Positions 5,800-60,141 of a DNA stretch of 64,000 nucleotides are shown piece after piece. The stretch lies in the NCBI GenBank assembly GCA_022813865.1, contig JALDZX010000018.1, positions 310,001 to 374,000 on the forward strand, in the 5' to 3' direction. The notes under the pieces were generated by a model that made no database searches, was not told the origin of the DNA, and saw nothing but the letters and a program-made list of their open reading frames with translations. Source of the stretch: Xylographa opegraphella. Its lineage: Eukaryota. The number at the start of each line of letters is the position of its first letter. Within the stretch, counting starts at the first letter, position 1. A program made the position numbers and the translations under genes.

Positions 5800-7375
5800 G
5801 TGAAAGTGCTGCCTGGATTATGATTGAAACAGGATTGCCAGATACCTACTCAAATTGCTACTGATTTGCGATTTCGATGAAGATTGCCTGCTATCTAGAA
5901 TGGGTTCTTAGGCTGGCGTATACTGATATGTTGGTCAGACCTTGGGTGTGTAACCTTTAGTCTCAAAGCAAATCAAAGTGCCGCTTTCATTTGAACCAAA
6001 ATATATCTGTTTCTATCTTTCTCCACAAAATAACCCTACGACTTCATCGCTGTCCTTCTACCACATACAGTATAAATTATAGTCCCGAGTTCATGTATAT
6101 ACCTTTGTTCCCAGCGCTCCATACCAGAGCACTCTCATCTGTTACCCCCTATGAGGCTCTGCACGAGGCGAGAGTTAGTGATCGATTGCGTTGTAGCGGT
6201 TTTACGGACGGATCAGCTTCTGTGGCTTACCTTTGCAGCAAGCTTATCTATGGTTTGCCTCGGGAATTCAACAGTCACCGACTTGATATCTGTTTGACAT
6301 GTAACGTACATCTCGTTGGAGATCACGTCCAATCTCGCGGCCGAATTCTCAAGCGGTTGTGTTATTATCTCTCCGTGCCAATACTTGCTAACTCTGCACG
6401 GAATTACTACTTTCTTGAGATCAACGATTCTAGCGAATGTATATATAAACACATATATATGACAATGTCGTGTGTATGTTAGTTAATGTATCTATCTACT
6501 GAAACTATACCTGGGTGTCGAACAAGCTCTGGAATACAATTTTGTCAATACCTGGCTTCACGTTCTGCTGCCTCTCCTCGACTTCAGGGTCCACAGAGTG
6601 GTTTTCTTCACCATTAAACTCGTCTTATAGTGCAAATTTCGACAGCATTAATAGTATGGAGTCTACTTCATCAATACTTACGCACACAGCTCCTCCTCTA
6701 TTCTTCCTTTCCGCTTTCGCAAAAGTCATTACTACGGCACCACGACTATATTTTTCGAAGCGGTGAGTCCGAAGATCAAGCAAACTTTGCTTGCATCGTG
6801 CGTTATCCCAAATCTGTCAATTCGCCAGCTCAAATTTATAATTTCGCTGATCTCAAAAACACATGCCATCAGCACGCGGAGTACCGCATCTTCGTGTGCA
6901 TTCCATGTGGCTATCTGTTGCCAAGTTATACCACAGTCTTCTACTCTGTGGCACCTACTTGTAACAGGTCTGCCATAATCGAATACAGTAAGGTCTGTCG
7001 TCGCCCCAATGATTGCTTTCTAGCACCCAAGCCTCTGCCTTACACTTCTGTGGTTTAACAAGCTACGGCACTACTATCGCGGTAAAACATGTAGTATAAG
7101 TGGATACGTGTGGTATGGTAGATCGTATCGTATGGATATTCACAAAGTGGTGAAGTGATCTCAGCCGTTTAATATTACCGAGCGCTAGATTCTAGGACTA
7201 GGGCTAGGGTATTCTAGCGTGGCTTGGAATGCATATCACGTGATTCCGCGCTTTGCCCAAAGTTCTTGCTGTTCGCCCGCAGCATGCTTTTTCTCCCACT
7301 ACGTTATTATGTAGTCAGAATGTGAAGCTCGATGCGACTTGCTCATCCATGACCTGCCAATGTTGTTACGGTTGA

Positions 7376-24390: not shown

Positions 24391-26084
24391 TCACAATCCC
24401 TCCACCGCAATCACAGGCGCATACAACGGACAAATATAATCCACCACGATCTGCCGAATCGTAACCTCACCAAACAGGCCATTCGGGCCCAGATCCCCCA
24501 GGTCCACATCCAGATGCGAGCCCAAGCGCGGCCACCCCGGCCCACCCGTCGGGTTCTTCGCGAACCGCGCCCACGCCGTCTGCATGTACGAGCTCAGCGC
24601 GACCTCCTGGGCCGTGGCGCCGGCGGTCGGGTACGTGCCGAACACGAGCGGGATCTCCGAGGAGTGGTACACGCCGGCGTCCGGGAAGGTCTGCGTGTTG
24701 GGGAAGCTGGCGTTGAAGTAGTAGCGCCAGGCGTCGTAGCCCGACGTCGAGGCGAGGTTGGCGAGCGCCGAGGTGGGGCAGAGGAAGGTGGCGTCGGTGA
24801 TGATGGCTGCGATGGCGAAGTAGGGGGTCTGATAGACGGAGAGCGGGTACGCGGCCGCGATGGCGGCTTGGAGGGCGGGCAGGCCCGGAAAGTTGGTGGC
24901 GAGGAAGGTGGTGATGTTCAGGGGCTCGTCGAGGCCGTCTTCGGCGGCGAAGGGGCGCCCTTCGTTGGCGTTGGTACCGATAAGGATGGGAACTTGCGCG
25001 GCAGTGTGGGAGGTGATGGCGAGGGCGACGTTGCCGGTCTCGGTCTTGTTGTCGACGGTCGGAGGAAAGGAGAGCGCCGCGTGCTCAATAACGCTCTTGA
25101 TCTTGGTGGCGGGGACGGCGCGCACGCAGTTTATCTGGGACGTTGCGGCGGTGCAACCGACTGCCGCGACCAAGGTTTCCCATGATGCTGGTCCCGAGCC
25201 CGTGAATGCGGCTGCTTCGCTTTCGAGAATGGCGGCCCGGAATGGAAGGGGAGACGGGGGCACACTGAAGAGCTCTTTGACAGAGTAGCCGCCAGCTGAC
25301 TCGCCGAAGATGGTAACCTTTTTTGGGTCGCCACCGAATTGCTTGATGTTCTGCTGGACCCATTGCAGAGCCATTCGCTGATCGAGGAAGCCGGCGTTTT
25401 GGGAGTCTATAGGGAGTTGAGGGGACGATGAGAATCCGAACACTGGACGAGCTCAGTGGCTTGTCCAGAGTTCTCCTTATGAATAAGGTGCTTACCATTC
25501 GTTCGATAGTTATGAGTTACGAGAACCACATCTTGATTGGCCGCAAATGATGAGCCATCGTAGGGCGGAATATTTGCAGTCCCGAACTGCAGATTGCCCC
25601 CATATATCCAGAACATAACAGTCCTGCCTGTTGCTGGGGCGGGACTGGCAGGTGTGTAGACATTCAGGTACAGGCAGTCTTCGCTTTCAACTGGAGGTGG
25701 TCCTCCAGGGTTGTTGAACACCGCCATAGTGAAGTTTCTCGATGGCTCAGGGTCTATACGAAAGTTAGAAGCTCGTGTGTCAACTTTCCATGCCGACAAC
25801 TCACAGTTGAATTGCTGTATACATGCGTCCTTGAGGGTCGCGGCATTTATTGGTTTGGACCATGACGCCGGGGCTGATGGAGGAGAGAATCGCTGCGGCG
25901 GCGACGCTGCGAATGGTATGCCAAGGAATTTATTGACTGCGACTGTTGCTGATGGTAGCGTCGTTGTAGTTCCAATAACTACTCCAGACGATATGGTTAC
26001 AGTGGGAATTGCAGCAGAGACAATCTGAACAACTAGCAGTAGAGAACACAAGGAAAGAGCGGTAAGAGGAGATTGAAAATGCAT
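24391..26084 (-). CDS. Secreted type-B carboxylesterase/lipase
   Basis: Signal peptide, FLGIPFA, SEDCLYLNV, WIYGG, NYRT, FGGDP..VTIFGESAG, HSSEIP; two introns. Confidence 0.93.
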
Positions 26085-56887: not shown

Positions 56888-58468
56888 ATGGAGGATGAGG
56901 GCATTCTGTCCAAGGTCCAGGATCTGACCGATGTTGAGCTTGCTTTATTACTGTGTCTCGTGGCAAATCAGCATTGTATCGTCGAGACCATTGATGAGGC
57001 TGTGGATAGACTCGAAGATGAGATACAGCTGGTATGAACCACACCGATGAACTGCCAGCAGTACGCATCGCTGACCGATGTCGGCTGAAACAGATAGCTT
57101 CCAATGTCTTTGGTCTTTCTGTTGCCGTGGTCCAATGCTCTCGAGATACAACCCTGGAGGATTTCAGTTCTGATATCCTGATTTCAGATCAGACAACGAC
57201 GCACGACGATCCTGTAAGAGTTCATCGGGACATTCTTCTTGCGCCTCTCTACTCCTCAGACGTCTAATCATTATTTTACTCCTCGTCTCGTCTACCACCT
57301 GTGATATGCATTCGGCCCGTATCTGCCGCAATGCTCCATTCTAATGGCTGTGATACTCACCGTATCTCTGTTTTGCGTCTTTCCTATGATGTTTCTTGCT
57401 TCGTTACTCAAAAAGATCTTCAGTGCTTATCGTACATTGCGTACATTGCATCGATATGTACCTTCCTAACACTGATGATCTCAAGAATTCTAAAAAGAAC
57501 CGCAAAAACTCTCTGTACAGACATGAGATGTCATCAACGCGCGAAGAAAGCCGACTGCCAAATGTAATCATTGCCAGCAATCTTAGCTTGGCCGTTCATC
57601 AGGTTCAGATCCAAGCCCTTGAGGTATGCTTGTCAACCTACTCTTTGTGCAGGATCTAAGAACATTGTAGCTGCTTCGTACCGGGCGTATTTTCACACAT
57701 ACAGCTGTCTATTCGGTTCCGAAACCTTTTCTCCTAGTTTTATTAGACGTGGCATCTGGTACACCATTAGTCAAACATCTTGTATAGAATTTCCCTTGCT
57801 TGATTACTTTTCCTCTTACCTCTAGGTAGAATGATCATGTGTTCTTATCCCATTACCACGATCCGGAAGATGGCTTCGCCAACATCGAAGAAGGTTCCGA
57901 ATGGATTGAGGATGATCGGGCCTCTCTCTCCTCCGTTGTACACAAATCCGTTGCGAGAAATCATATCAATAATCCTTTAATCGACTTGGAGGTGAGGTCC
58001 AGGTGTATCCGATAATGTTCCCTTTGGCTCATTCGAGCTGTAGAACATTGAACTCCTCAGCTATCGAAGTCGTTCTACCAAAGTCAGCGTTGAAGTCAAG
58101 CGCTATCTTCATGATATAATTACGTTTTTGAGACGTCACCACGCTGTCGCCAGTGGAATAACTCCTCTCGCTTCAAAGCACTTTGAGCTTCTTGCCAGGT
58201 GACTATCTCGATTCTCGAAAAAGATCCGGGCTTATTCACCGACTACAGGTCCCTCGCTCCTGTGCACGGTCTAGACTTTGTGACGCCGTCGCTGGTTCAG
58301 TTAGCCGCAAGGAAGGTGTACAGGCACCGAATCGTCATTGTCGAGCCTGAGGACGAGCGAAGCATGCAGTATGGGAGTGATCTGGCAGCCGTCAGAGCAC
58401 TGCTTGAGAGTCTGACTCCCGATAGGGTGATTGAAGAAGTATTGGAGAGTATTGAAGTTCCATTGTAA
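56888..58468 (+). CDS. Mtc2-like / magnesium-chelatase-like (degenerate AAA) protein
   Basis: LTDVELALLLCLVANQHCIV, VQIQALE|LLRT, DHVFLSH, FLRRHHAVASGI, FVTPSLVQLAARKVYRHRI; about 7 exons. Confidence 0.75.
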
Positions 58469-58684
58469 TGGGCAGTCGTTATATATGATGTGCCTTATAT
58501 ATGATGTGCGTTATATATCATATAAGTTAACGAGCCTCCGTATCGAGCGCCGCCACAATGAGACTAGTCTACAATCTGCTGGCACAAAACTCAACTCCTT
58601 TCTGCAGGTTTCTTCTTTTCTTCTTTTCTTTTTTTCCCTCAGAGACTGAACCACAAACCCACATCCACCATACAGTCACTCACA

Positions 58685-59147
58685 ATGACTTCTCAAGTCT
58701 GGGTTTATTTCGACAATGTAAGTGCATACATCAAGACTTGCAAGCTCTTCTTGCTATGCAGCATCTCCCTTCTTTCGATGATACTTGCACTTGCGATCAC
58801 CAACATCATCCATTGCATTCTTGCACAACACAAAGCTAACCATTCTCCCAGTGCCATGCTCCGCCTCCTGGCTTTCGTTTCGGCCAGTTGGTGGGGGCGC
58901 CGGTCGTTCTCACCTATGACGAACGACAGCGATGGGCCAAGCTCGTCGATTGTTTGTCTTCCCCATATAGTATTAGTGATCTGTGATCACAGTGACATTT
59001 CCACTAACCTTTCACTGTAGTGTACACCTGGATCGACTGCCTCCAGCTGAGGCACGGGCAGGACCACGCAGCAGTCCTTCGGGACTACAACACCTTCCGC
59101 GGCCCGCAAGGGTACCCCACCATGACAAGGTGGTTCTCTCTGAGTAG
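58685..59147 (+). CDS. Putative 64-aa three-exon microprotein (MTSQVWVYFDNCHAPPPGFRFGHVHLDRLPP...HDKVVLSE)
   Basis: Exons 58685-58717, 58852-58886, 59021-59147; donors GTAAGT and GTTGGT, CTAAC branch sites, YAG acceptors; no family recognised. Confidence 0.45.
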
Positions 59148-59890
59148 CAAGTAAATAGTTTCTTCCCAAATAGAGGATTTGGATTATGCTAACAACTACA
59201 TTCAGGCGCGCGCATCTCCGCGCAGAGATCAGGGACCTCACGGTCAGGGCAGGAGTTCAACCATTTATATGGTTGACTCCCATGACGCTTTGACCTAGGC
59301 ATGGTCTACAGTCCTGGTGGCGACGCCAGGGCTGGCTCGATGAAGGTTCCTTCCCACTGTGGTTGGGGCCTGAGGGTTCATCGGCGACGAGTTCGCACTT
59401 CTACGCAGTGCCGATGACAAGTACCTTTCCGCGATAAGCGCGACAAGCGAAACTAAGTCGAACTCATCGTTTGTATGTATAGGTTGCCTTTCTTGTTGAA
59501 CTACGTAGACTATAAATGCACGAGACTCTCATGCTACAGCAGACTATGGTACGAATGCGTGAGACCTGTCTAAAGTCCCTCTTATGCACGTTAAGCTGGC
59601 GGTACAGCTACAGACGACGGTGAAAGTGCGTGATCGTAAAGTTGTCGCGCTTAACACTGCGCTTAACATTACGCCTAACAATGCGCTTAACACCTTGCGA
59701 CACTCTGCGCATGTTACTGTACAACATTTGTGATTCACAGTGATGTTTTGGTGTGAAGCAAACAGCCGCGGTAATGTCGTTAGATTTGCGGTTGTGAGCA
59801 ACACCTGCTTGTTTTCGCTCGATCATGCGCTTAGTGGTGTTTAGGGTTTTTAGTCCGCAACCGACAAGTCGCGGTGACTGTGAAATAAGC
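59021..59890 (+). ncRNA. Unidentified highly structured RNA region (lncRNA or structured 3' UTR), containing intron 59151-59205
   Basis: Dense hairpins with UUCG, GCAA and GCGA tetraloops and long-range helices that close through G-U pairs on the + strand; ends approximate. Confidence 0.55.
59647..59694 (+). repeat. Four tandem 12-mers, consensus GCGCTTAACANT
   Basis: GCGCTTAACACT GCGCTTAACATT ACGCCTAACAAT GCGCTTAACACC. Confidence 0.9.
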
Positions 59891-60141
59891 AAATCTTATA
59901 ATCTAGGGAGATTTGTACTCGTGGTTGTGTATTCTACGGTATTGCCTCTTGCTGAAGTCTTGAATTCTGCTACGGGCAGAGGGTCAAACCGGTGATCGTG
60001 CGACCAATACAGTAGCTTTTAAAAGTCATTCTATACTTTTGGTTATTTCCTACATGATCAGCGATACGATACCGATGGCTTTTATGATTGCTTCCTATCA
60101 ACCGCCCATAAATCTACTCCACGCCCCTCCCCCATCCCTCC

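Follow-up and report, generated by a model that had tools for sequence, protein, structure and literature searches.

How should a stretch of fungal DNA be read when it offers no long uninterrupted reading frame and a dense series of potential RNA helices? The question is raised by positions 59021-59890 of a 64,000-nucleotide (nt) window from Xylographa opegraphella (contig JALDZX010000018.1 of assembly GCA_022813865.1, positions 310,001 to 374,000 of the forward strand), to which all coordinates below refer. An initial annotation of this DNA, made from the sequence alone, took the interval for a single spliced and highly structured RNA of ~900 nt, either a functional long noncoding RNA (lncRNA) or a very structured 3' untranslated region (UTR). 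Our analysis suggests that the interval is probably the 3' portion of a small, ordinary orphan gene, followed by its 3' UTR and by spacer, rather than one RNA gene, and that a free-standing structured lncRNA is unlikely. The interval starts on the first base of exon 3 of a small plus-strand locus that is, as we are fairly confident, a protein-coding gene with putative expression. The first 273 nt of the proposed lncRNA comprise exons 3 and 4 of a conserved open reading frame (ORF), and its distal two thirds fold like shuffled sequence.

The reading frame opens at an ATG (58685-58687) that follows a CT-rich tract and, once three introns are removed, it runs for 116 codons to a TGA at 59291-59293. 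All three introns have GT..AG ends and, a short way ahead of the acceptor (CAG or TAG), a CTAAC branch site, and their GC contents (Table 1) compare with ~0.58 in the exons. The statement that there is no long ORF holds for the unspliced sequence and fails for the sequence without these three canonical introns. That the RNA is spliced was correctly recognized, as the intron proposed at 59151-59205 is canonical and corresponds to intron 3 of the small gene.

Coding potential was scored with a codon table derived from this window, for which 14 long ORFs with 6043 codons in all served as training set. In frame, the spliced ORF reaches +11.2 bits, vs -39.6 and -17.0 in the other two frames; for equally sized chunks of the training ORFs, the corresponding values are 15.2 +/- 11.8 (in frame) and -35.0 +/- 18.0 (out of frame). 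The GC content of its third codon positions (GC3, 0.68) exceeds that of first (GC1, 0.58) and second positions (GC2, 0.47). On the minus strand and in the other ORFs within 58990-59995, codon scores are only -12.9 to +3.0 bits, and sliding windows in all frames across 59294-60141 contain a single open 40-codon window above 6 bits (6.2).

Evidence of conservation comes from two other species of the genus. The 43-residue translation of exon 3 matches the X. parallela hypothetical protein MMC32_001937 (88 residues; E 7.6e-16, 86% identity) and the X. vitiligo protein MMC15_003066 (103 residues; E 2.2e-11, 97% identity over 67% of the query), these orthologues being two of the three scored candidates of that search. 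Aligned without gaps, the full conceptual protein is identical to them at 65 of 88 and 80 of 103 positions, respectively, and the exon junctions agree. Both proteins share the N terminus and the junctions of our model, and they part from it at the 3' end. The X. parallela protein ends where retention of intron 3 would stop the ORF of the window, at a TAA in 59152-59154, whereas the X. vitiligo protein has the same C-terminal end as ours and joins the Gly before 59112 straight to exon 4, which would require GTACCC at 59112 as an alternative in-phase donor. The 116-residue ORF differs from both annotated models in that intron 3 is spliced at 59151. As the orthologue models differ here, our placement of intron 3 and of its donor is provisional, and the frame of exon 4 is common. 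Compared with random single-base nonsynonymous changes, replacements relative to both orthologues are marginally more conservative (mean BLOSUM62 -0.17 vs -0.60, P 0.04), a test that is weak because shared replacements are counted twice.

The apparent structure of the interval was compared with dinucleotide shuffles. The whole 870 nt fold better than these on the plus strand (minimum free energy -302.9, z -4.05, 0 of 20 shuffles as good) and less clearly so on the minus strand (z -2.44, 1 of 20 as good). This excess of folding is local and is not spread along the interval. We divided the interval into 290-nt windows (30 shuffles each), for which 112 window-strands taken elsewhere in the 64 kb served as background (mean z -0.11, standard deviation 1.12, minimum -3.87), and into smaller pieces (200 shuffles each); within the interval the excess is confined to 59206-59340. 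A real, unusually stable fold favoring the plus strand is therefore present, as the initial annotation had perceived, with z -5.81 on the plus strand vs -2.65 on the minus strand. The fallback of a very structured 3' UTR comes near the truth for 59294-59340; 59341-59561 folds at chance level (Table 1).

The individual helices fared unevenly. Those that were checked are all in the sequence, among them the 11-bp hairpin with a GCGA loop, and most lie where they had been placed, the exception being one arm at 59625-59636, not 59626-59637; the UCGAUGAA/UUCAUCGG helix is located at 59337/59377. For an 11-bp helix with G-U pairs allowed, about one is expected by chance among the ~45,000 position pairs of 300 nt, if base frequencies are assumed equal. 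The cUUCGg and GCAA hairpins, which had been offered as signatures of selection on structure, fold at chance level, and in X. parallela an Ala replaces the Arg whose codon supplies the CG of the UUCG loop, a replacement that takes two or more substitutions among the loop bases. The large arm proposed for the distal part contains its helices and is likewise at chance level. The argument from G-U pairs on the plus strand is circular for the helices overall, because these were picked on the plus strand with G-U allowed, and it is real for the 11-bp hairpin, which is stable on that strand only. Exon 3 is the best conserved part of the protein yet shows no excess structure against synonymous-codon controls (z +1.21, -1.06), so structure does not explain its conservation.

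The fold at 59206-59340 extends from exon 4 across the stop codon into the nucleotides just beyond it. A repeat run gave z -5.0, a value of -5 being reached by 0 of 204 random 135-nt windows (minimum -4.32). By stability adjusted for GC, it ranks first among 8516 window-strands, with the next loci close behind. Its central element, an extended hairpin of 82 nt, sequesters the final 22 codons together with the UGA, and the part at 59236-59300 alone has z -5.55 on the plus strand and -4.32 on the minus strand. If perfect hairpins are counted whose stems reach 10 bp or more (G-U allowed), the whole window has 15 on its plus strand and 5 on its minus strand, and six shuffles of the window contain a mean of 7.7, nested duplicates being included in this count; from the numbers on the two strands, the 11-bp hairpin is uncommon and not unique.

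The existence of the ORF, the conservation it shows and the stability predicted for this module are matters of observation; the reading of the module is one that we infer. The module would belong to the mRNA of the small gene as a cis feature instead of being an RNA in its own right. Most likely it is an inverted repeat, close to a palindrome, that doubles as the source of the C-terminal codons, and it may act on the mRNA by slowing termination or stabilizing the 3' end. Beyond 59293, the sequence would continue as 3' UTR and then as spacer up to a convergent gene of the MDR/enoyl-reductase type.

Several observations weigh against reading the locus as an ordinary gene. Both orthologues are ab initio predictions, from genomes annotated with funannotate, Augustus, snap, GeneMark-ES and GlimmerHMM, with RNA support nowhere stated (PMC9098629), so that they speak for conservation of the frame and do not imply expression. 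The two models also disagree on the 3' end, one by retention of intron 3 and the other by a different donor. Exon 4 taken alone hardly separates the frames (+0.9 vs +0.2 in one other frame), and residues 77-81 form a run of multi-base replacements relative to the X. parallela protein that could mark a noncoding piece. No X. opegraphella protein for the small gene turned up in the exon 3, word-indexed or representative-protein searches, so the gene seems unannotated in this species, and none was found from X. soralifera, X. bjoerkii or X. trunciseda, though their MDR orthologues are in the databases.

The lack of a wider protein family also weighs on this side. A phmmer search of 1.84 billion representatives with the X. 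vitiligo protein recovered the X. parallela protein and no relative outside Xylographa, a Pfam search of the protein found no family, and the ESM Atlas gave no usable match, the recognition value of 1825 lying below the 2300 reached by 91% of known families. In favor of a protein, AlphaFold2 models the X. vitiligo product as three helices, with a predicted local distance difference test (pLDDT) value of ~70-77 in the core and a predicted template modeling score of 0.54; the mean pLDDT is just 61, and Foldseek with this model found no match in the PDB at E <= 0.001 and nine at E <= 10. The 116-residue protein is restricted to the genus and is without family or fold match. A word-indexed search with the X. 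vitiligo protein returned two of four candidates, the protein itself and its X. parallela counterpart. Two further leads were discarded as spurious. The first, a 744-residue protein with eight matched stretches in phmmer (E 6.3e-5), is the translation of a tandem repeat. The second came from a metagenome scan with the X. vitiligo protein, in which 296 pattern matches reduced to two loci on GC-rich contigs whose sole resemblance was one off-frame pattern of 8 residues; at one of these loci the matched stretch lies inside a long open frame of another frame.

Structure in the RNA adds a further point on this side. In controls that keep the protein and the UTR fixed while synonymous codons are permuted or resampled, the stability of exon 4 plus UTR exceeds that of the controls (z -2.61, 8 of 300; z -2.38, 4 of 300), and the same holds for the whole coding sequence (z -1.99, -2.44). 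In addition, the plus strand of 58731-59020, a stretch covering introns 1 and 2 with exon 2 between them, gives z -3.96, lower than any of the 112 background values. Taken together, these results leave room for a degree of selection on RNA structure along the gene.

The strongest competing explanation draws on much of this. It holds that 58685 to ~59560 or beyond is a spliced, structured noncoding RNA in which the ORF is fortuitous and was called by gene predictors in two relatives. The ab initio status of the orthologues, the unannotated locus in X. opegraphella, the missing family and fold matches, the folding of 58731-59020 and 59206-59340 and the stability of the spliced coding sequence over its synonymous controls all suit it. 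A fortuitous ORF does not, however, readily account for a codon signal that is specific to one frame, for GC3 above GC1 and GC2, or for a gapless frame across four exons and three species with 74-78% amino acid identity. Nor does a structural RNA fit a best conserved segment that lacks excess structure, a UUCG loop that is not kept at the codon level and the want of any Rfam match. We consider this explanation improbable, and the small gene remains our preferred reading.

Whether the structure of the 59206-59340 module has itself been selected is a separate matter, and here our support is tentative, with selection somewhat the less likely case. Any synonymous choice keeps most of the energy of the module, ~-57 of -67.6 kcal/mol. 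The X. vitiligo protein carries one replacement that would turn a G-U pair into A-U, and others that change paired positions 59246, whose partner is the U of the stop codon, and 59256, which is paired with the base that opens a conserved Thr codon, both partners being fixed. These replacements imply at least two broken pairs, so conservation of the helix is imperfect. A dual coding and structured locus, in which the module would be a selected cis-regulatory or recoding RNA of the orphan gene, acting as a driver of readthrough or as a processed hairpin, is a still more distant prospect that we regard as quite unlikely.

In its recoding form, this idea would have the UGA, followed by C and by a hairpin 15 nt downstream, promote readthrough into the codons beyond the stop. 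Past the UGA, no further stop interrupts the frame for 47 codons, until a TAA at 59435-59437, and the tryptophan-rich extension scores -2.0 bits, which is intermediate between coding sequence (6.1 +/- 5.6) and local noncoding sequence (-17.7 +/- 12.4); the hairpin at 59309-59334 is strong on the plus strand. In viral cases of readthrough, the spacer from stop to structure is ~8 nt, and the 15 nt found here is longer. An open stretch of 47 codons would arise by accident with a likelihood of ~10% by our own arithmetic, and the extension ends, as judged by eye, without a recognizable targeting signal. According to an excerpt of PMC4207609, UGA C and UGA CU(A) weaken termination, the latter being leaky in fungi, and downstream structures can raise readthrough. 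The locus resembles such UGA CU(A) contexts of fungi and animals with downstream stem-loops in its UGA C, its nearby hairpin and its open frame. It differs from them in reading UGA CC, with C where they have U as second base behind the stop, in having the stop codon itself paired in a helix and in an extension that has no known signal. We attach very little probability to this sequence-based candidate.

The processed-hairpin form would make the 82-nt hairpin at 59226-59307 a Dicer substrate, as a microRNA-like precursor, or a site for a double-strand-specific nuclease controlling the mRNA. With its 30 pairs, -36.2 kcal/mol, a folding index of 0.86 and the z-scores given above for 59236-59300, the hairpin has the makings of such a substrate, and in being imperfect, ~80 nt long and ~30 pairs in extent it is like fungal microRNA-like precursors. 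Here, in contrast, it lies within coding sequence with the stop codon included; it overlaps conserved codons, and the X. vitiligo replacements would break pairs at 59246 and 59256. We hold processing of this kind to be highly doubtful.

A selenocysteine insertion element through which the UGA would be read as selenocysteine is rejected as having next to no likelihood: the Rfam model SECIS_1 (RF00031) does align its AUGA and UGA core motifs around a helix at 59332-59388, downstream of the UGA and with an open frame beyond, but at 15.6 bits against a threshold of 35 (E ~2), with an apical part of 5 nt vs 15 in the model and a position inside the putative extension and not in the 3' UTR, in a group, fungi, that is without selenocysteine machinery according to the same excerpt (PMC4207609).

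The initial annotation had been unable to match the RNA to the hallmarks of RNase P/MRP, SRP, U3, snR30 or telomerase RNA, and the searches agree. Across the whole window, 0 of 4227 Rfam families reached the gathering threshold. At permissive settings, CRISPR-DR44, Transposase-2, TeloSII_ncR30, SECIS_1 and snoU82P appeared near the locus with E of 1.2-8.8, far below threshold, and were set aside; a C/D box small nucleolar RNA was rejected in the same way, snoU82P scoring 10.2 bits against a threshold of 42. ARAGORN found no transfer RNA. As regards a multicopy transposon or MITE, the 64-kb window contains no second copy of 58469-60141, the best other match being 20 nt long (E 0.31).

The features of the locus are collected in Table 1. 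The two motifs used to place the end of the 3' UTR, UGUAUGUAUA and UAUAAAU, presumably resemble yeast-type 3'-end signals.

Table 1. Coordinates and properties of features at and around the small plus-strand gene; z is relative to shuffled sequence, with the number of shuffles as good in brackets
Feature	Positions	Strand	Properties
Exon 1	58685-58717	+	ATG, 11 codons, then donor GTAAGT; N termini of both Xylographa orthologues align
Intron 1	58718-58851	+	GTAAGT ... CTAAC ... CAG; GC 0.44
Exon 2	58852-58951	+	33 codons plus 1 base; codon score in frame +4.3 bits vs +1.3, -8.9
Intron 2	58952-59020	+	GTTTGT ... CTAAC ... TAG; 69 nt; GC 0.39; junction fits both orthologous proteins
Exon 3	59021-59150	+	Best conserved protein part; contains the UUCG and GCAA mini-hairpins; codon score in frame +4.6 bits vs -17.9, -6.8
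UUCG and GCAA hairpins	59066-59120		z -0.29 (+), -0.23 (-); chance level
Intron 3	59151-59205	+	GTAAAT ... CTAAC ... CAG; 55 nt; GC 0.33
Exon 4, coding	59206-59293	+	28 codons plus stop; 21 of 28 residues identical to C terminus of X. vitiligo protein, same end
Stop-codon module	59206-59340	+	Exon 4, stop codon and first 47 nt beyond; -67.6 kcal/mol; 49 pairs, 5 of them G-U; z -5.81 (+; 0/200), -2.65 (-; 2/200)
GC hairpin	59208-59223	+	Part of the 59206-59340 module
Extended hairpin, 82 nt	59226-59307	+	30 pairs; -36.2 kcal/mol; folding index 0.86; 3' arm includes stop codon
11-bp GCGA-loop hairpin	59309-59334	+	z -5.31 (+), -0.92 (-); 15 nt downstream of UGA
Presumed 3' UTR	59294-59560	+	End 59560 guessed by eye from UGUAUGUAUA near 59473 and UAUAAAU near 59510
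Piece of presumed 3' UTR and beyond	59341-59561	+	z -0.31
Large arm	59562-59860	+	Helices present, at chance level, z -1.61 (+; 12/200), +0.09 (-); probably spacer between two convergent genes
Tandem repeat	59647-59693		12-nt unit, 3.9 copies; in spacer
First 290-nt window	59021-59310		z -2.58 (+), -3.59 (-)
Second 290-nt window	59311-59600		z -1.05 (+), -0.71 (-)
Third 290-nt window	59601-59890		z -0.74 (+), -1.16 (-)
Last exon of convergent MDR/enoyl-reductase-like gene	60142-60936	-	ADH_zinc_N, E 8e-22; bounds spacer

Elsewhere in the window, the motif of the 12-nt repeat shows no enrichment (13 matches vs 11.1 expected). The product of the convergent MDR gene is 100% identical to an X. opegraphella protein and 85-91% identical to proteins of three other Xylographa species. 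Adjoining this gene, long ORFs on the minus strand at 61778-64000 resemble, by eye, the terminal part of a reducing polyketide synthase, with its reductase and carrier protein, and these polyketide synthase-like ORFs and the MDR gene may form a biosynthetic cluster. On the other side of the small gene, the upstream gene, whose last exon matches AAA_lid_2, has its stop at 58466-58468 and is directly followed by an AT-rich tandem repeat of 16 nt (58479-58529, 2.5 copies) that forms hairpins of 11-12 bp. Intron 1 of the small gene, within the well-folding stretch 58731-59020, contains repeated CTTGCA-like words, again by eye.

Elsewhere in the window, a second strong 135-nt fold is found on the plus strand at 6871-7005 (-52.3 kcal/mol, z -5.85 with 0 of 200 shuffles as good, and z -6.44 in another run; minus strand z -3.58). 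Two stop-to-stop ORFs, 6618-7058 and 6655-6978, contain it. On the plus strand at 24945-25647, a region in which long ORFs overlap on both strands, four hairpins whose stems measure 10-11 bp (G-U allowed) fall within 700 nt.

What had been read as a structured lncRNA resolves into a small, intron-rich gene apparently missed by the annotation of this genome, together with ordinary spacer. The case points to the need for a splice-aware check wherever intron-dense fungal DNA is read as having no long ORF. Should the fold around the stop codon prove to be conserved in other Xylographa, a group for which hardly any RNA biology exists would gain a tractable candidate for an element of termination or stability.

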